From contig CAZUDM010000012.1 of the NCBI GenBank assembly GCA_964618635.1, positions 2,315 through 66,314 of the forward strand: 64,000 nt of DNA, given 5' to 3'. The notes under the pieces were generated by a model. The model was not told where the DNA came from. It made no database searches and worked only from the letters and a program-made list of their open reading frames with translations. The DNA is from an uncultured Spirochaetia bacterium (GTDB lineage Bacteria; Desulfobacterota_D; UBA1144; Nemesobacterales; UBA2774). Made by a program: the position numbers and the translations under genes. Below, in pieces: positions 9,689-43,400 of the stretch; within the stretch, counting starts at the first letter, position 1, and every line of letters begins with the position of its first letter.

Positions 9689-9796
9689 AAAACACCAAAC
9701 GATAACGCGTAGGTTAGTTTTAAACTATTTTCACCGACTTTTCTTGAGATTGTCAAGGATTCGAATAAAATACTCCAAATTAAAAAAGGACCGCCA

Positions 9797-10984
9797 ATGC
9801 ACAGAATACCGGAAGATTTTTCGCTCATAAGAAGGCTCCCTCCATACGTTTTCACCATAGTCAACGACCTTAAATCGAAAGCGAGAGCGAGAGGAGAGGA
9901 CATAATCGACCTCGGAATGGGCAACCCGGATCAGGCGACGCCCGAGCACATCGTTAAAAAGCTCCTCGAAGCGGCGGTGGACCCGAGGGCGCACAGGTAC
10001 TCGGCTTCGGCCGGGATACCCAAGCTGAGGCACGCGATCGCCGACTGGTACAAACGGAGCCACGGCGTCGAGCTCGACCCCGACAGCGAGGTTGTCGTCA
10101 CTATAGGCTCGAAGGAAGGCATATGCCACCTGATGCAGTCGATACTGTCGCCTGGCGATACAGTGATAGTGCCGAACCCCGCATACCCCATACACATATA
10201 TTCGGTGATAATATCGAGGGGCGACGTTCACAGCGTGCCGTTTAATATTGAATCGAGTCTTCTCGAAGGCATAGAGAAGGCCGTGAAAGAGACCTGGCCG
10301 AAGCCGAGGGTTCTCATGATCTCGTTCCCGAACAATCCGACGACAAAGGTCGTCGACCTCGATTTCTTCAAGGACGTATACGAGCTCGCTCGCGAGGCGG
10401 GGCTGATAGTCGTCCACGATTTCGCCTATGCCGAGCTATGCTACGACGGCTACAAGGCGCCGAGCTTCCTCGAAGTGCCCGGGGCGAAGGAGCTGGGAGT
10501 CGAGTTCTACTCACTCTCCAAGACCTACAACATGCCGGGGTGGCGTGTCGGGTTCATGGTCGGTAACGCGAGGATCGTATCCGCGCTCAAGCGCATAAAG
10601 AGCTACATGGACTACGGCATATTCACCCCCGTGCAGGTGGCTTCCATAGCCGCACTTAACGGAAAGCAGGACTGCGTCGACGACATAAGAGAATTTTACA
10701 AGTCGAGGCGCGACAAGCTCGTGGACGGCCTTTCGAAGGCCGGATGGCAGATTCCGAAACCCAAGGGGACGATGTTCGTATGGGGCGAGATTCCGGAGGA
10801 ATTCAGGGGCATGGGCTCTCTCGAATTTTCCAAGCTCCTCGTCGAGAAGGCAAAGGTCGCCGTGTCGCCGGGTATAGGATTCGGGAATTACGGCGAGGGG
10901 CACGTGAGGTTCGCGCTCGTCGAGAACGAGAAGAGGATAATGCAGGCCGTCAGGGGAATAAGAAGGTTTTTAAAGGGCTCATAA
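9797..10984 (+). CDS. PLP-dependent aminotransferase class I (AlaA/AspC-like)
   Basis: 395 aa. The class-I aminotransferase signatures DLGMGNPD, NPTT and SLSKTYNMPGWRVG are present. It resembles E. coli AlaA block-wise. Assignment as DapL could not be confirmed. Confidence 0.8.
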   Translation: MHRIPEDFSLIRRLPPYVFTIVNDLKSKARARGEDIIDLGMGNPDQATPEHIVKKLLEAAVDPRAHRYSASAGIPKLRHAIADWYKRSHGVELDPDSEVVVTIGSKEGICHLMQSILSPGDTVIVPNPAYPIHIYSVIISRGDVHSVPFNIESSLLEGIEKAVKETWPKPRVLMISFPNNPTTKVVDLDFFKDVYELAREAGLIVVHDFAYAELCYDGYKAPSFLEVPGAKELGVEFYSLSKTYNMPGWRVGFMVGNARIVSALKRIKSYMDYGIFTPVQVASIAALNGKQDCVDDIREFYKSRRDKLVDGLSKAGWQIPKPKGTMFVWGEIPEEFRGMGSLEFSKLLVEKAKVAVSPGIGFGNYGEGHVRFALVENEKRIMQAVRGIRRFLKGS

Positions 10985-11013
10985 GAGAACCGTTACGCGC
11001 GACCGGCGGCGAA

Positions 11014-14000
11014 TTAGTAATCGAAGTTGAAGAACACGTCCGCGCCTGTCTCGTCCCCGATCTCGCTTTCGAGCGTCAGAAAATCGAAGACCCTGTACTC
11101 GATAACGGCCCTGTTGGCGGTCGCCGTCGAGGAAAGAAGCCCCGGGCTCAGGAAGTATCTCTCGTAGAAGAACCGCTCGTAGGAAAATCTCTCGTAGCCG
11201 ATGTAGAAATTTTCGGTGAGGTACTTGCCGATTTCGAGGTGTGTGTCCTTAAAGCCCGTCTGGCTGCCTTTTATAGTCATGACGTCTATGGCGAGGTCGT
11301 CGCCTATAGCCTGCCGGAGCTCGCCGACAGCCATTGTTCCGAGCACCTCGCCCGCCTTTTCCTGGAACTGGACCCTTTCGTCCGTGCCCAGCTTTTCGGA
11401 CGACGTGCCGAAAACGAGGTATGAGACGATGTCGTTCTCGTCGAGGGGCGGGTCGCTCGTGAGCTGGATCTTGGGCTTTTCCGCCGTGCCGGAGACGTTG
11501 ATGTAGACCTCGACGCTCGATACTTCGTAGGTCGCCCTGAGGTCGAGAAACGGGTCTACGATCTTCTTCCCGCGGAAGCTTACAGTGCCGCTCTCTATAT
11601 TGAAGAGCCTCCCCATAAACTGGTAATCGCCCCTCACAACGTCTATGTTGCCCGTTATGACGTAGGGCTCTTTATAGTTCTTGTCGACGTCGAGGCGGCC
11701 CTGCACTTCTATGTTCGCGCCGCTTCCCTTTATCCACGACTGCCTCGGGATGTCGACGTCGAGCTCGAGTGCCACGAATTCTTCGACGAAGTCGTCCTTG
11801 GTAGCGCCCGTATATACGAACTCGTCCTTTTCTTCGTCTTCGTCGATAAAGCGTATATTCTCGATTTCCTTAATGGGCTTGTCGGGAACAATAGCCTTTA
11901 AGTTATTGACGGTGATGTCGCCTTTTATGAGAGAGGCCGGGAATGTGCCGCTCACGTCGATGCTGCCGTCGAGGTTTGCCGTGACGTCGTTGGGATAGGT
12001 TCGGACGAGCATTCCCTTCATCGTCCCCTTCCCGCTGTAGGAGAGGTCCCTGAAATCGATCTTGCCGCTGAAAGAGCCCTCGCCCTGGCCGCCTGTTTTA
12101 ATAGCGACGGGGCGGAGGGTGCCGTAGGGACCGCCCAGGTCCATCACGGCGTGCTCGATTTCGATGTCGTTTCTAAGCATGAGAAGGTCGAGGACCGTAT
12201 CCCTGAGCTCTATTCTTCCCGATATGTCCGGCTCGCCGCCCGAGCTGGTTGCGGTTACGTCGACGAGGAGCTTTCCCTTTAGCTCCTGTATCTCGGGGTT
12301 CAGGATCATGAGCGGGCTTATGTCGATTCCCTTCGACTTTACCCTGGCCGTATAGCTCGCCCTCTCCAGGGCTTTTTCCATGCCGGAGCCCAAGGGTATG
12401 CGTGCGTCGGCGACTGCCGAGAGAACCTCCTCGCCGCCGTCCCTCACCCTGAGGTCGAGCTCGAGGTCGTCCCCGAAATGGATGAGTGAAAGGGTGAGCT
12501 CGTCGCTTTTGAACTCCTTGTATTCGAGGTTTTTCGCCGAGGCCGCGATTCTTATAGTCGGCTTTCGAACCGTGCCCCCGACGTTTACGTCGCCGGTGAC
12601 GCTTCCCTTAACGGAAAACCTGGCTTTGAGGAGTGTCGAAACGTCTGAGAGGTCCAGTTTTTCGAGTTTTATCCCCGCATTTATCGCATCGCCGGGGCCG
12701 AGCGTCAGCTCGCCGAGGACGAAGTTCTCCTTGTGGTAGAGATTAAACGAGCTGACCGAGAAGCCGCTCTTTTTAAGCGAGGCATGGATCGGCCGTCTGT
12801 TTTCGAAGAGGGAGTCCTTAAAGGCAAGTTTTATTTTCGGTATCTCGATCGATTTTTCTTCGGTATCGAGCCCCGAAGCCCTGAACTCGGCCTCGTATTT
12901 TCTATCGGGCGCTTCTTTTACGTGAAGCGCGCCGTGTACTTCGCGGCCTACGCTCCCGGCGTCAAAATCTGCCGCCAGCAATTTACGGCCCTGAATTTCG
13001 ATGCCCCTGAGCCCGCCTTTCGCACTCATTTGAAGATCGGAGGGGTCGAGGTTGGTTTCGGCGGAGAGCTCTATTTTTTTGACTGCAAGCTTATGATTCC
13101 GGGACGAAAAATCCGCTCCTTTCACGCTCGCCGTGAGCCTTGGCTTTTCGAACGTGCCTCTGATATAGCCTTCGGCGCTCAGGCTGCCGGAGAGGTCGTC
13201 TCCGGGGAAAAGGCTCGACAGAGCGCCGAGGTCGCCAACTTTGAGGCCGTACCGGATACCCTTCTCCGCGCCGGTTCCGAGGCTCCCCGAAGCCTTTGCC
13301 GAAAGCCGCCCGGTCTCCAGCGAAAGGGTCCTGATGTCGAGTGTCGAGGGTGTGAATGAAAAGTCCACCACACCCCGGTCGAGCCTGAGGGCTTTTATCA
13401 CGGACGGGGATATATCGCCCTTTACGGACACCTGAAGGCCGTCGGGAGGCTTCCTTTTAGGTATCATGGAGCCCTTTACGTGGAGCTTCGAATTAAAATC
13501 CGTTTCGTTTGGGAAGTCGGTCAGTATGTTGGCGAAGTTGGCTTTGGCGGACGAAGTATCGAGGTCGAATTCTATTTTGTCGGGCCGGATGGTTATGGGG
13601 CCCGAAAGTGTTATTTCGCCGGTCTCGGCGCCGCTCATCCTGAAGCTTTCGAGGGCGACGTCGATTGCCGGGGGCTCCTTCCCTTTCCAGCGGGTCTTTA
13701 CATTAAGGCGGGAGTCTACCGAGGCGTTCACATCCTTTTTGAGCTCCCTGGGACTGCCCTCGGGCTGTGTTTTGTCGAAGATTTCCAGCAGGCGCGACGC
13801 CGACGCGGAATCGACCGAGAGATCGATGTCGGCGCTGTTTTCCTTTCCGGGAGATTTTATTTCGGAAAGCTCGAGCGTGCCTTCGAAGTCGGCCTTGCCG
13901 AAGCTTGAGGAGAGCTTTCCATCTGCGAGCCTGACAGTAGTATTCTCGACCATAACTTTCCGAACGGAGCCGTCGACGTTTTCTCCCAGTATCACCGAAT

Positions 14001-38955: not shown

Positions 38956-38984
38956 TTGACAAAAATCCGGAGGGGAAATAGATT
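38956..38984 (+). promoter_or_regulatory. Near-consensus sigma-70 promoter (-35 TTGACA, 17-nt spacer, -10 TAGATT), giving an almost leaderless transcript for the 38994 gene
   Basis: TTGACA lies at 38956-38961 and TAGATT at 38979-38984. The ATG at 38994 lies about 9 nt after the -10, with no Shine-Dalgarno sequence. Confidence 0.45.
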
Positions 38985-38993
38985 TGTATACGA

Positions 38994-39458
38994 ATGAAAA
39001 CCGGAATAATAATACCCCTCATTTTACTCGCGGTCACTGCGGCCCCGGTCGTATCCTCGGCCATACCCCGGCCGTGCTCAGAGGATGAGCTTCTCGAAAG
39101 CTCGGACTATGCGGTGGAAGGGACAGTGACGAAGGTCGAATGCGGGGAGGCGTACGACTCCGGGGAATGCAGATCCATAGACGGAGAGAGCGGCTTTAAG
39201 CCGGAGATGGTTGCGAAATGCACTGCAACCGTATCCGTCACGAAGAGCTTAAAGGGAGACTACGCCCCCGGAAGCGAGGCGCCTTTGCCGTTTTTGAAGG
39301 TCGTCTCTCCGTGCGAGAACGGGAGCCATATTATTCCCGGAAGCCCTAAAGCGAGCCTCTCAGATAGCATGCTTGTAAGGTATTACAACTCCGGAACGTG
39401 CAGGTACTCGAATCTCGAAATTCTCCCCACCCCTACTCCCGGGCCCCAGAATAAATAA
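38994..39458 (+). CDS. Secreted cysteine-rich hypothetical protein (8 Cys; signal peptide)
   Basis: 154 aa. The signal peptide is MKTGIIIPLILLAVTAAPVVSSA. No recognisable domain. Confidence 0.5.
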   Translation: MKTGIIIPLILLAVTAAPVVSSAIPRPCSEDELLESSDYAVEGTVTKVECGEAYDSGECRSIDGESGFKPEMVAKCTATVSVTKSLKGDYAPGSEAPLPFLKVVSPCENGSHIIPGSPKASLSDSMLVRYYNSGTCRYSNLEILPTPTPGPQNK

Positions 39459-39515
39459 TCCATTTTTTCCGAAAGCCCGGTATAATTCCGAAAGCGTTAC
39501 CCAGGGGTCGTTCAC

Positions 39516-41099
39516 ATGCCGCTAAGCTCCTTTGAGCTCGAAATATTCAGGAACATACTGAGCTCGATAGCCGAGGAAATGGGAGTCGTCCTCGTCAGGG
39601 CCGCGTTCTCGCCGAATATAAAAGAGAGGCGGGACCTCTCCTGCGCAATATTCAAGACGGACGGCGAGATGATAGCCCAGGCCGCGCACATACCCGTGCA
39701 CTTGGGATCGATGAGCTTTGCGGTGAGGGCTATAATCGACGAGCCGGATACAGCGCCGGGCGACGTATTCATACTGAACGATCCGTATAAAGGCGGGACA
39801 CACCTACCCGACGTCACCTGCATTGCTCCCGTATTCATCGGCGGGAAGCTGGAATTTTACGTGGCGGCGCGGGCCCACCACGCCGACATAGGCGGCCTTA
39901 CGCCCGGCTCTATGCCGCTTTCGACTTCGATACACGAGGAAGGGCTACTGATCCCGCCTTCGAGACTCTACAGGAAAGGACAGCAAAACGAGAAACTATT
40001 CGACGAAATCCTCTCTGCAACGAGGGACCCCGAGGAAAGGGAGGGTGACCTCTGTGCGCAGCTGGGATCACTCGAGCTCGGGGTTAAGAGGCTGAATCAC
40101 GCGGCGGAAAAATATTCGCTCCGGAAGATAAAGGATGCCGGCGACGAGCTCCTTTCGTACAGCGAGAAGATGATGAGGGAGGTCATCAGGCAGATACCCG
40201 ACGGCAGGTACGAATTCTCGGACTTTCTCGACGACGACGGGGCAGGAACGAAGAACATACCGATAAAGGTCGCTATAGACATTAAAGGCGGCGGGGCCGT
40301 CGTCGACTTTGCGGGCACGTCGAAGATGGTGAAGGGGTGCGTGAATACACCGCTGAGCGTTACGACGGCGGCCGTCGTCTACGTATTCCAGTGCATGGCT
40401 CCGACGGAGATGCCGTTAAATTCCGGGCCGCTCCGCGCGATACGTATCGCCGCCGAAAAAGGCTCGATACTGCACGCGAAGTACCCGGCCGCCGTCGTGG
40501 GCGGAAACACGGAGACCTCGCAGCGCGTCGTGGATGTGGTGTTCGGGGCGCTGTCGAATGCGGCGCCTGAAAAAATCCCTGCGGCCAGCGCGGGCACTAT
40601 GAGCAATACTACGTTCGGGGGCGTAAATCCCGCTACAGGAAAGAAGTTCGCCTACTACGAGACTATAGCCGGGGGGATGGGCGGAAGATACGGGAAGGAC
40701 GGCGTGAGCGCGGTGCAGACGCACATGACGAATACGCTCAACACACCTATCGAGGCCCTCGAGAGGGAGCTCCCGGTGATGATAGATTCCTACAGCGTCA
40801 GGAGGGGGAGCGGAGGCACGGGGCGGTACAGGGGCGGGGACGGTATAGTGAGGGAGTACAGGTTCCTTACGGATGCTGTTCTGTCGATCATAACCGAGAG
40901 GAGAACGCACTCTCCCTACGGCGTTGAAGGCGGAGGGAGCGGGAAAAGGGGCAGGAACACGCTCACGAGACGCGGAAAAAATATACGGATTGCACCGAAG
41001 GCGACGCTGGAAATAAAGAAGGGGGATGTCCTCGGCATAGAGACGCCGGGGGGCGGAGGATGGGGGAAAGCTCCGAAACGAGGCGGTGCGCGCAGATGA
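39516..41099 (+). CDS. hyuB: Hydantoinase B/oxoprolinase family protein (HyuB-like), no HyuA partner
   Basis: 527 aa. The conserved N-terminus FELEIFRNILSSIAEEMGVVLVRAAFSPNIKERRDLSCAIF...AHIPVHLGSM matches PF02538. Confidence 0.8.
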   Translation: MPLSSFELEIFRNILSSIAEEMGVVLVRAAFSPNIKERRDLSCAIFKTDGEMIAQAAHIPVHLGSMSFAVRAIIDEPDTAPGDVFILNDPYKGGTHLPDVTCIAPVFIGGKLEFYVAARAHHADIGGLTPGSMPLSTSIHEEGLLIPPSRLYRKGQQNEKLFDEILSATRDPEEREGDLCAQLGSLELGVKRLNHAAEKYSLRKIKDAGDELLSYSEKMMREVIRQIPDGRYEFSDFLDDDGAGTKNIPIKVAIDIKGGGAVVDFAGTSKMVKGCVNTPLSVTTAAVVYVFQCMAPTEMPLNSGPLRAIRIAAEKGSILHAKYPAAVVGGNTETSQRVVDVVFGALSNAAPEKIPAASAGTMSNTTFGGVNPATGKKFAYYETIAGGMGGRYGKDGVSAVQTHMTNTLNTPIEALERELPVMIDSYSVRRGSGGTGRYRGGDGIVREYRFLTDAVLSIITERRTHSPYGVEGGGSGKRGRNTLTRRGKNIRIAPKATLEIKKGDVLGIETPGGGGWGKAPKRGGARR

Positions 41100-42319
41100 C
41101 GGAATATCCGAAGCTGAGATACATAGAGGCGATACCTTCGGAGGCCGAGGGGGAAAAGGTTATATACCTGAGAGACCCTCAGAACCCCGGGGGCAACGTG
41201 CTCGCTGTTTCGCCGGGGACGGTTCTCGCCCTCACGCTTTTTAACGGGGAGAACAGCGTCGATGACGTATGCAGGATTCTCTCCCAAAAGTACGGAGGCG
41301 ACGTCAGGAAAGAGGACGTCGAGAATCTCGTGGCGAAGCTCGACGAGGCGCTTTTCCTCGACAGCAAGCGATACAGGGATTACAGGAACGGCGTCGAGCG
41401 CGAGTTCAGGGAATCGGACGTGAGGGAGCCGGAATTCGCGGGGCTCTCCTATCCTGCGTCAGCGCCGGAGCTGGAAGAATGGTTCGCTGCGTTCCTTAAA
41501 GAAGCTGGCGGCGGAAATGCAGCCAACGGGAACGGGAGACTGAAAGGGATAATATCTCCCCACATAGACTACAGCCGCGGAGGAGTGTCGTACGCCAGGG
41601 CGTATGCCGCTCTTCCCGAGAGCGCGGCGGACGTCTTTATCATATTCGGGACCTCTCATTATGCGCTGGTGGACAATCCGTTTATATTGACGCGAAAAAA
41701 TTTCAGGACGCCCCTCGGCGAGGCGAAGACGGACAGGAACATAGTAGGGAGGCTCGAGGCCGCGTGCGGGTGGGACCTCTTCGAGGGCGAGATTTCGCAC
41801 CGTACGGAGCACTCTATAGAATTTCAGGTCGCGTTCCTCCAGCACATGCTGAACGGCAAGAGGGGCTTCACGATAGTGCCAGTATTGTGCAATTCCTTTC
41901 ATAGAATGGTGATGGAAGGAATCTCCCCTTCAGAAGACGGGCGCGTGTCGAAGTTCCTGGAGGAGATGAAGGTGATAACCTCGGGACTCGGGGACAGGGC
42001 GTTTATAATAGCGGGGGCCGACATGGCTCACGTCGGCCTCAAGTTCGGAGACAGCGAGAGCGTGAACGAGGCCACGCTCGGCGTGATAAGGGAAAGGGAC
42101 CTCTCGTCCCTCGCCTTCGGCGAAAAAATGGACGCCGAGGGATTTTACAGGTCCATAGAGGCCGAGAAGGACTGGCGGAAGATATGCGGGCTCTCGCCCA
42201 TATACGCCGCGCTATCGACAATGGAAGCAAAGAAGGGCGTTTTACTCGACTACGACCAGGCGCTGGAGCCCGATACCGGCTCCGTCGTCAGCTTCGCCAG
42301 CATGGGGTTTTACCGGTAA
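41096..42319 (+). CDS. Fusion protein: N-terminal PqqD-like RiPP-recognition element (RRE) domain plus a Memo1-like (AmmeMemoRadiSam system protein B family) domain
   Basis: Start MTEYPK (ATGA overlap with hyuB stop). Residues ~105-407 align block-wise to human MEMO1 (GIISPHIDYSRGG/IIFGTSHY/EHSIEFQ/FTIVPVL/ICGLSPI). Residues ~20-95 align to PqqD (LFNGENSVDDVCRILSQKYGG...VRKEDVENLVAKLDE vs [21 protein letters not shown]...[15 protein letters not shown]). Confidence 0.7.
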   Translation: MTEYPKLRYIEAIPSEAEGEKVIYLRDPQNPGGNVLAVSPGTVLALTLFNGENSVDDVCRILSQKYGGDVRKEDVENLVAKLDEALFLDSKRYRDYRNGVEREFRESDVREPEFAGLSYPASAPELEEWFAAFLKEAGGGNAANGNGRLKGIISPHIDYSRGGVSYARAYAALPESAADVFIIFGTSHYALVDNPFILTRKNFRTPLGEAKTDRNIVGRLEAACGWDLFEGEISHRTEHSIEFQVAFLQHMLNGKRGFTIVPVLCNSFHRMVMEGISPSEDGRVSKFLEEMKVITSGLGDRAFIIAGADMAHVGLKFGDSESVNEATLGVIRERDLSSLAFGEKMDAEGFYRSIEAEKDWRKICGLSPIYAALSTMEAKKGVLLDYDQALEPDTGSVVSFASMGFYR

Positions 42320-42422
42320 TCCCGAATCCGTATAACATACGGGCGAATCATCAGGCATTATAATCTCTACAATCTGATAAAGTCGGGCGGTGCGGCGACG
42401 CCGCAAGCCGCGCACATAACTT

Positions 42423-43400
42423 ATGGATACCGGGATGCCGAAAGACCTTTTCATACTCGACGCGCACGAGGACATCGCTTTTCATCTTAACTACTTCGAC
42501 AGGGACTTCGTAAACCCCGAGTCACCCTGCATGATAACGCTTCCGTGGCTGAAAGAAGGAAAGGTGAGGCTTTTGTTCAACACGATATTCGTTCACCCGA
42601 AGCATAAGCCCGGGAAGACTATCGAGTCGGCGCTCGCCCAGTTCGACACGTACGAGAAAATCTACCGCGAGCACGCGGACGAGGTGTTTCATGTTAAGAC
42701 GGCAAGCGACCTGGACGATATAGAGCGAAGCCCGCGCACAGGGTTCCTTACGCTCATGGAAGGGGCGGACCCTGTGGAATCGCCGGAGAAGCTCGGCGAG
42801 TTCTACGAGAGGGGCGTCCGGATCATCGGGCTCTCCTGGAACGACAAGAACATTTACGCGTCGGGAAACGATACGGGCGAGGGCCTCTCGGAAGAAGGGA
42901 AGAGGCTCATCGGGCAGATGAACAGGCTTGGGATAACGCTCGACCTCTCACACATAAACGAAAAGGGGTTCTGGGAGGCGATAGAGCTGACAGAGCTGAT
43001 ACCGATTGCGTCGCACTCGAACGCGAGGGCCGTAACCGACCATCCGAGAAACCTCAGGGATGAGCAGATAACGGCCATAGCCGGGCGGGGCGGAGTTGTG
43101 GGGCTCGTGTTATATAACCAGTTCCTCAAAACCGGCGAGGGGACGCCGACTCTCGAAGACGTTTTCACTCACGCGGATTATGTTGTGAATCTCGTCGGCG
43201 AGGACCACGTCGGCATCGGGAGTGACATGGACGGGGCGCGTATAGAAGACTTTCCCGAGGGGCTGAGAAGGATTTCGGACCTTCCGAAGATCGCCGGTTT
43301 TTTCCTGGAGAAGGGCTATTCCGAAGAGAGGGTGAGAAAGATAATGGGCGGGAATTTTCTAAGGGTGATGAGGGAAAATCTCCGCCGTGCTTCCGCCTGA
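42423..43400 (+). CDS. Membrane dipeptidase, peptidase family M19 (renal dipeptidase-like)
   Basis: 325 aa. The M19 metal-binding motifs are present: DAHED, SHSNARA, GIGSDMDG. Confidence 0.8.
   Translation: MDTGMPKDLFILDAHEDIAFHLNYFDRDFVNPESPCMITLPWLKEGKVRLLFNTIFVHPKHKPGKTIESALAQFDTYEKIYREHADEVFHVKTASDLDDIERSPRTGFLTLMEGADPVESPEKLGEFYERGVRIIGLSWNDKNIYASGNDTGEGLSEEGKRLIGQMNRLGITLDLSHINEKGFWEAIELTELIPIASHSNARAVTDHPRNLRDEQITAIAGRGGVVGLVLYNQFLKTGEGTPTLEDVFTHADYVVNLVGEDHVGIGSDMDGARIEDFPEGLRRISDLPKIAGFFLEKGYSEERVRKIMGGNFLRVMRENLRRASA

Follow-up and report, generated by a model that had tools for sequence, protein, structure and literature searches.

An RRE-Memo fusion protein in a lineage-specific gene slot: a predicted peptide- or protein-directed branch of the Memo family

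Memo proteins are conserved from bacteria to humans; human MEMO1 is implicated in cancer cell motility and in iron handling, and the biochemical function of the family has been in question since 2004. A phosphopeptide was reportedly seen by Qiu and coworkers in 2008 in the active-site cleft of human MEMO1. The crystallographic Fe/Cu ligands of MEMO1 are H49, H81 and C244, and in the Fe-bound structure a glutathione molecule lies beside the metal and is contacted by H192 (PMC11081632). Memo domains fused to a recognition element (RRE) of the type found in the biosynthesis of peptides that are made on the ribosome and modified after translation (RiPPs) were catalogued by Bregman et al. (mSystems, 2025; PMC12710340), who reported RREs fused to 'Memo-like proteins (PF01875)' as high-confidence, AlphaFold-predicted and 'unprecedented in RiPPs'. 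The RRE-Finder model table holds RREFam044 'Memo_RRE', with a cutoff of 20 bits, and the paper mentions the fusions in passing, without substrate, context or function. Here, we describe a protein of this architecture encoded in a 64 kb stretch of DNA (64,000 nucleotides of contig CAZUDM010000012.1; hereafter the window). We read it, with a probability of roughly 0.55, as a peptide- or protein-directed Memo enzyme for which the products of the flanking genes, a HyuB-family protein and a peptidase M19 dipeptidase, are not obligatory partners.

The gene at 41096-42319, the start of which is backed by homologue alignments, encodes a two-domain RRE::Memo fusion of 407 residues with the following parts.

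41096..41365, plus strand: RRE (PqqD-like winged helix), residues 1-90, from the AlphaFold2 secondary structure.
41366..41422, plus strand: linker between the RRE and the Memo domain, with a helix at residues 91-106, from the AlphaFold2 models.
41423..42319, plus strand: Memo (LigB-superfamily) catalytic domain, residues 110-407, from PF01875 (E 4.7e-43) and a Foldseek match to MEMO1.

The predicted structure settles the nature of the N-terminal domain, which has an RRE fold in the AlphaFold2 models. The full protein was modelled with a predicted local distance difference test score (pLDDT) of 87 and a predicted template-modelling score (pTM) of 0.82, and the isolated domain (pLDDT of 88) adopted an identical fold. 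Three strands (β1, 11-17; β2, 20-26; β3, 35-38) are followed by three helices (α1, 40-46; α2, 55-66; α3, 72-84), which is the RRE topology proposed in an earlier, sequence-only reading of this DNA. A structure search with the domain put bona fide RREs at the top and in most of the first 25 places, and for several of these the solved structure includes a bound leader peptide; LynD, ThcOx, MccB, MibB, TglI, TbtB and NisB were also found after the top ones. DNA-binding winged helices reached structural scores of at most 5.3. Those of the PKMT/Rv2067c protein methyltransferases (8.1 and 7.3) and of the JmjC hydroxylases MINA53 and NO66 (6.9 and 4.6) form the basis for a rival reading of the winged helix that is weighed below. 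MINA53 and NO66 hydroxylate ribosomal proteins with a cupin catalytic fold, in contrast to the LigB fold of the window protein, and they match less well than the true RREs.

The evidence from sequence alone is weak but consistent. As anticipated, the profile match of the N-terminal extension falls in PF05402 (PqqD), at residues 46-85, but its score of 16.8 bits is below the gathering score of 23.4, and across runs the protein scored 16.8-19 bits without reaching this threshold. The marginal matches in NCBIfam were exclusively to proteins that bear an RRE (ApyI, PqqD and the daptide protease), and a cross-phylum profile of residues 1-110 ranked PqqD (5SXY) and PaaA first in the PDB, with E values of 0.06-0.1. 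PF05402 was matched at E < 1 by ten of 28 diverse family members, and a precomputed match is on record for 14 of the 120 closest homologues. The RRE is scarcely less conserved across phyla than the catalytic domain (31-34% versus 40-42% identity), which argues for a conserved ligand and suggests that one exists in most phyla.

The Memo domain shares its fold with MEMO1. The PF01875 match covers residues 111-403, and Foldseek aligned the model with human MEMO1 (E 2.7e-16, TM 0.77-0.79, 24-25% identity; PDB entries 3BCZ and 7KQ8), followed by LigB-type extradiol dioxygenases. A phmmer alignment places H156 (codon at 41561-41563), H188 (41657-41659) and C364 (42185-42187) on H49, H81 and C244 of MEMO1, and H239 aligns with H192. 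All four residues, together with D158 and H312, are invariant in 20 homologues, and because the ligand residues are invariant the catalytic core looks intact. The complete Memo1-like core that had been claimed is therefore borne out by Pfam, Foldseek and the metal ligands in agreement, as is its fusion to an RRE by the predicted fold and the structural matches. The window protein thus has the fold and the 2-His-1-Cys metal ligands in common with human MEMO1, which has no RRE, whereas the bacterial fusion carries about 105 extra N-terminal residues.

This architecture is widespread. More than 1,500 database proteins match the fusion, the best 120 of which are all full-length, at about 408 residues. 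A relative is encoded by at least 598 of 185,579 species genomes; in the best 80 of these the matches cover the query from its first residues, and they span Thermodesulfobacteriota/Dadabacteria, Planctomycetota, Acidobacteriota, Verrucomicrobiota, Spirochaetota, Methylomirabilota, Omnitrophota, Poribacteria and others. Cultured carriers include the planctomycetes Kolteria novifilia and Singulisphaera sp. GP187. An RRE-only profile matched 1,566 clusters at 50% identity (789 at E <= 1e-10) among 1.84 billion representatives, placing the Memo-type RRE in at least ten phyla, and its full-length matches are nearly all of 400-430 residues. The sole match with another architecture is P0285 (986 residues), in which the RRE occupies residues 1-109 and there are weak TPR matches around 604-664 and no Memo domain. 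Short matches (100-350 residues) were considered as stand-alone RREs; of six that were checked, three are clearly truncated Memo fusions and three have no Pfam match, and we take the short matches to be fragmentary and to come from short contigs.

In a neighbour-joining tree, 79 family members group by taxonomy at the level of phyla, which points to vertical inheritance, unlike that of mobile biosynthetic clusters. The RREs of RiPP pathways (PqqD, the TfuB1/TbiB1 lasso B1 proteins, PbtF, LynD, NisB and TigE) are encoded beside a precursor, proteases or exporters. The RRE-Memo family differs in being vertically inherited and in having no such cluster, except for a 30-residue open reading frame (ORF) in one planctomycete clade. 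The fusion had been taken to be undescribed, but RRE-Memo fusions are catalogued with their own hidden Markov model (HMM) in PMC12710340. A literature search found no discussion of the fusion beyond Bregman et al. (2025). Judging from its architecture, the window protein would belong to the seed family of Memo_RRE in RRE-Finder; the gene adds a member to a family that is known from bioinformatic cataloguing and has never been studied.

The family also carries a name from another system. The window protein matches TIGR04336 (AmmeMemoRadiSam system protein B) with 112 bits, and its NCBI homologues (for example P0016 and P0018) are named 'AmmeMemoRadiSam system protein B' because the cutoff of this model is only 26 bits. 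Despite the match to the protein B HMM, the window differs from the AmmeMemoRadiSam system in having no co-located AMMECR1 and radical SAM genes: none was found among the ORFs scanned across the 64 kb, in line with what had been noted from the sequence. Among 118 immediate neighbours at 61 loci of other phyla, radical SAM occurs twice and AMMECR1 is absent from the 25 families listed. As these partners are absent, the name is probably an over-annotation for the RRE-Memo subfamily.

A conserved ORF of 30-33 residues (PIREIAPPAWPLPLI; consensus M..PQPIREIAPPAWPLPLIA..PRGPRR.A) lies 60-175 bp upstream of the RRE-Memo gene, on the same strand, at nine of nine planctomycete loci that form one clade of the enzyme tree.

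L077, 9781-9873: small ORF of Singulisphaera sp. GP187, ahead of RRE-Memo at 9989-11209.
L054, 4065-4160: small ORF.
L071, 9772-9888: small ORF.
L074, 3006-3107: small ORF.
L079, about 9760-9862: small ORF.
L080, 9716-9820: small ORF.
L067, about 632-727: small ORF.
L057, 9793-9885: small ORF.
L064, 9785-10060: small-ORF sequence (MRPKPIREIAPSAWPLPLIALPPR...) continuing in frame into RRE-Memo with no stop, in a Planctomycetaceae metagenome-assembled genome.

The read-through in L064 may be a real fusion of peptide and enzyme or may stem from an assembly indel. Scanning metagenomes for REIAPPAW gave 18 confirmed loci (L081-L098), and in 17 of these RRE-Memo starts 75-150 bp further downstream; L084, the one exception, is a rearranged locus with repeats downstream. 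Shine-Dalgarno-like sequences precede the ATG of the small ORF, conservation collapses past the stop codon, third positions are variable in 14 of the 15 codons of the core, and among 20 distinct DNA versions there are 1,283 synonymous versus 310 non-synonymous codon differences. The codon pattern, the Shine-Dalgarno sites and the drop in conservation show that the small ORF is coding. Its product has no NCBIfam match, and the coupling of a small ORF to RRE-Memo appears to be unreported in the searched literature. From these sequence features, the 30-residue ORF likely encodes a candidate cognate peptide of RRE-Memo in this one clade.

A promoter-like TTGACG-17-GAGAAT with a conserved -35 hexamer overlaps the stop codon of the small ORF, which suggests that RRE-Memo is transcribed from a separate promoter just downstream of the peptide gene. 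TTGACG followed about 17 nt on by a -10-like hexamer is seen at the small-ORF stop in L054, L071, L077 (9870-9898), L067, L074 and L079. In the spacer between the small ORF and Memo no terminator and no consistently stable structure was predicted, and the RNA-folding z-scores are inconsistent (-2.9, 0.0, -1.1 and -2.8). Other conserved small ORFs near the fusion were also considered; 2,653 small ORFs within 1.5 kb were clustered, giving mostly shadow frames and low-complexity noise, and the planctomycete peptide was the only cluster judged to be a genuine intergenic small ORF.

The window itself is a housekeeping stretch of a Dadabacteria/Thermodesulfobacteriota-type bacterium (secDF, tgt, dapB, yicC, sucD, icd, gyrB, pheS, carB, nuo genes and tamB). 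The span 38994-43400 holds four genes, all on the plus strand. The following features accompany the fusion.

38956..38984, plus strand: promoter-like site TTGACA-17-TAGATT, ending 9 nt short of the ATG of the secreted protein.
38994..39458, plus strand: secreted protein of 154 residues with a signal peptide and six invariant Cys residues.
39516..41099, plus strand: HyuB-family (hydantoinase B/oxoprolinase) protein of 527 residues with no HyuA adjoining (PF02538, E 2.6e-208).
42423..43400, plus strand: peptidase M19 dipeptidase, cytoplasmic, with a probable true start at 42435 (PF01244, E 6.6e-88).

The hyuB, Memo-domain and M19 genes are thus all present as the sequence-only reading had them, each with its profile match (PF02538, PF01875 and PF01244), and the ATGA overlap of the hyuB stop with the Memo start can be read directly in the sequence. 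Relatives of the fusion with 51-80% identity define the lineage of the window (loci L001-L019). Within it, M19 adjoins RRE-Memo downstream in 19 of 19 loci and HyuB lies upstream in 17 of 18, while sucD, yicC, an epimerase gene and icd are syntenic in the same loci. At the 61 loci of other phyla neither HyuB nor M19 occurs within 10 kb, save in L061, where an ordinary HyuA-HyuB pair lies 7 kb off. The 118 immediate neighbours at these loci are spread over 142 Pfam families, of which none occurs more than three times (the commonest, TP_methylase, three times), and recurrences inside single phyla involve unrelated genes of housekeeping type: cobalamin methylases, hut genes, Mrp/DUF59 and sulfatases. 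In three Deltaproteobacteria/Binatia-type genomes (L034, 1372-2801; L041, 402-1852; L048, 8087-9609) an Mrp/NBP35-type Fe-S carrier ATPase and a stand-alone DUF59 protein (FeS_assembly_P) directly precede RRE-Memo; DUF59 is the other RRE fusion partner termed unprecedented in the 2025 RRE paper (PMC12710340). Outside the one lineage, then, the fusions stand in effectively random contexts, which tells largely against the tailoring module that the sequence-only reading had proposed here, and the features expected of a RiPP cluster are not seen, the neighbours being housekeeping genes without recurrence and the tree tracking phyla. Family members usually stand singly, with unrelated housekeeping genes around them, and are mostly vertically inherited; the window gene sits in a slot particular to its lineage, with an orphan hyuB on one side and an M19 dipeptidase gene on the other.

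Surveying the neighbourhoods of eight relatives of HyuB (66-73% identity) gave a complementary view. None of the eight has a HyuA neighbour. The full trio of HyuB, Memo and M19 is present in L104; in L101 and L102 three genes, two of them on the opposite strand, lie between HyuB and an adjacent Memo-M19 pair. HyuB is directly followed by M19, with no Memo, in L103 (6001-8588; the two genes overlap by 4 bp) and L105 (5001-7597), and in L099 (6001-9292) a CMD-family gene occupies the place of Memo. Three of the eight contexts therefore have HyuB-M19 and no Memo, which makes RRE-Memo an optional occupant of the slot. The converse is seen in L019, where Memo and M19 are adjacent without HyuB and the other synteny is lost. 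These arrangements fit a stable syntenic block with occasional gain and loss of genes and a loose functional association at most, and they do not match a module of three obligatory enzymes. HyuB and M19 are at most optional accessories of RRE-Memo, linked to each other with or without it, and the orphan HyuB-M19 pair is a separate small unexplained system. Two side observations concern the HyuB relatives. In L106 (5001-8616) a HyuB of 68% identity is followed by a 292-residue radical SAM protein and a luciferase-like monooxygenase, with no Memo and no M19. The HyuB of L099/L100 (P0240) is labelled 'Candidatus Caldarchaeum sp.', an archaeon, and sits in Dadabacteria-type synteny (rpsB, tsf, pyrH, frr, sucD and epimerase); this contig is probably mis-binned.

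The window HyuB is similar over its full length to the HyuAB-type lactamases and carboxylases (N-methylhydantoinase, 5-oxoprolinase OplAB, caprolactamase and acetone carboxylase), its PF02538 match covering model positions 3-518 of 519. The best NCBIfam match is the caprolactamase beta subunit, with 268 bits against a far higher equivalog cutoff of 1000. In HyuAB-type systems the HyuA partner is normally encoded adjacently, whereas the HyuB of the window lineage instead keeps the M19 dipeptidase as its steady neighbour. The absence of a local hyuA noted from the sequence holds: tblastn found no HyuA in the 64 kb window or in 98 loci, the query's own source locus excepted, and none lies beside HyuB in the neighbourhoods of about 25 related genomes. 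The M19 protein is matched by PF01244 over positions 4-319 of 319 and contains HxD, SHS and DHPRN motifs, which we take to be zinc ligands. A start at 42435 (MPKDLFILDAHED) is more likely than one at 42423 and leaves a gap of about 115 bp after Memo (42320-42434); the spacing is about 10 bp in most relatives. Within this gap lie a perfect TATAAT, at 42359-42364, and, at about 42385-42410, a hairpin rich in GC.

The secreted protein at the head of the span has six Cys residues, not the eight first counted, and every one is invariant in nine orthologues. Pfam and NCBIfam scans gave no family match. Its family is restricted to the lineage of the window, with orthologues in L001-L018, and a GT9-like glycosyltransferase stands in its place in L014, L016 and L017; the protein is probably outside the enzyme set. 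The promoter-like site upstream, which had been called near-consensus, does match 10 of 12 consensus positions, and in eight Dadabacteria-lineage loci its -35 TTGACA is invariant and its -10 region is conserved. Sites of such quality are, however, hardly more frequent in the region than expected (three observed versus 2.3). As judged from the position of the site, a very short or absent leader is plausible for this transcript.

How might such a protein work? On the reading of RRE-Memo as a peptide- or protein-directed enzyme, it would be a two-domain metalloenzyme in which one helix tethers an N-terminal RRE to a Memo/LigB-fold domain. The RRE would capture a linear peptide or protein tail as an added β-strand on β3/α3, and would then present a residue to the 2-His-1-Cys Fe/Cu site of Memo, to be modified by redox or oxygen-dependent chemistry. 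If the LigB superfamily is a guide, the reaction could depend on Fe(II) and O2 and have an aromatic or thiol-bearing residue as its target; speculatively, the nearly invariant Trp of the planctomycete peptide is a candidate for the modified residue. The permanent attachment of a Memo domain to a module that docks peptides argues that this branch of the family, at least, works on peptides. More tentatively, RRE-Memo proteins might be peptide-modifying metalloenzymes with a genetically encoded substrate, which would be the upstream 30-residue peptide in the Isosphaeraceae-type clade and an unlinked conserved peptide or tail in the lineage of the window, where M19 and HyuB might recycle products; we regard this extended form as possible but consider the odds to be against it.

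Several observations weigh against a peptide- or protein-directed enzyme. The PF05402 score of the window protein is below the Pfam threshold, no enzymatic activity is known for any Memo protein (PMC11081632), and for all members of the family peptide binding and catalysis are predictions from models and sequence. Searching the window and all loci with an HMM of the planctomycete peptide gave nothing in the lineage of the window, and tblastx of the flanks found no conserved small ORF beside the gene in other phyla; the precursor peptide sought near the window gene likewise did not materialize, as neither the window nor its lineage has a conserved small ORF there. In view of L019, a functional link between Memo and M19 is also conceivable.

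The proposal with which the analysis began was that a single module dedicated to tailoring a peptide or small molecule is made up of hyuB, RRE::Memo and M19, perhaps joined by the secreted protein, and that RRE-Memo modifies a substrate which the amide/lactam hydrolase-type enzymes process. The 4 bp overlap between hyuB and Memo, the near-constant HyuB and M19 flanks in the lineage, the retention of Memo-M19 in L019 despite the lost flanking synteny and the persistence of HyuB near Memo in L011, L014, L101 and L102 despite inserted genes would all be expected of such a module. However, the linkage is limited to a lineage in which sucD, yicC, the epimerase gene and icd are syntenic too, it does not extend to the 61 loci of other phyla, and the ATGA overlap is confined to the nearest relatives of the window. 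HyuB and M19 adjoin without Memo in L103 and L105 and flank a CMD-family gene in L099, opposite-strand genes separate hyuB from Memo in L011, L014 and L101, and no RiPP-type precursor ORF, protease or exporter accompanies the genes. The three-gene module is thus weakly supported, and we think it unlikely. A more specific scheme, in which the three enzymes salvage a γ-glutamyl or thiol peptide in the manner of a glutathione cycle, through oxoprolinase-type ring opening, Cys-Gly-type cleavage and the binding of iron-glutathione by Memo, seems very improbable. It draws on the fact that 5-oxoprolinase (HyuA/HyuB-type) and M19 dipeptidase both belong to the γ-glutamyl cycle, and on the alignment of the invariant H239 with H192, the residue of MEMO1 that contacts glutathione beside the metal (PMC11081632). 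A HyuB without the ATP-binding HyuA, which is not found nearby in the genomes examined, is nevertheless not expected to act as an oxoprolinase; Memo is dispensable for the HyuB-M19 pair, and the scheme leaves the RRE unexplained.

Two further alternatives concern the parts of the peptide-directed reading itself. The winged helix might serve dimerisation, partner binding or regulation rather than substrate docking, in which case Memo would act on a small molecule or on a housekeeping protein in its folded state, or would handle Fe/Cu. Winged helices serve such roles in the JmjC ribosomal hydroxylases and in the PKMT methyltransferases, and the vertical inheritance of the family and its solitary position among unrelated housekeeping genes, with no RiPP-like context, would suit this function, as would MEMO1, an Fe/Cu-binding protein with no known enzyme activity (PMC11081632). 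We nonetheless hold it to be unlikely, as bona fide RREs, several with leader peptide bound, are the top structural matches, the sequence profiles match PqqD and PaaA first and, in one clade, the gene is coupled to a conserved small ORF. That small ORF could in turn be a cis-acting regulatory leader peptide, a Pro-rich, W-containing stalling upstream ORF that controls the expression of RRE-Memo, rather than a substrate. Its position is invariably immediately upstream of the gene and in the same orientation, APP/PP motifs abound in its sequence, motifs of this kind stall ribosomes, and conservation at the amino-acid level is also typical of arrest peptides. The separate enzyme promoter suggested by TTGACG-17-GAGAAT at the ORF stop argues somewhat against a leader peptide, as do the spacer without a terminator or consistently stable structure, the peptide-docking domain on the enzyme and the in-frame continuation of the ORF into the enzyme in L064; a regulatory role is a real but doubtful prospect.

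For the window, these comparisons mean that the apparent three-gene operon is lineage synteny and not a portable module or a new system. For the family, the small-ORF clade offers a concrete candidate enzyme-substrate pair, which would make Memo function experimentally tractable. If RRE-Memo proteins do modify a genetically encoded peptide, the Memo family, human MEMO1 included, would gain its first defined substrate and with it a first reaction that can be assayed.

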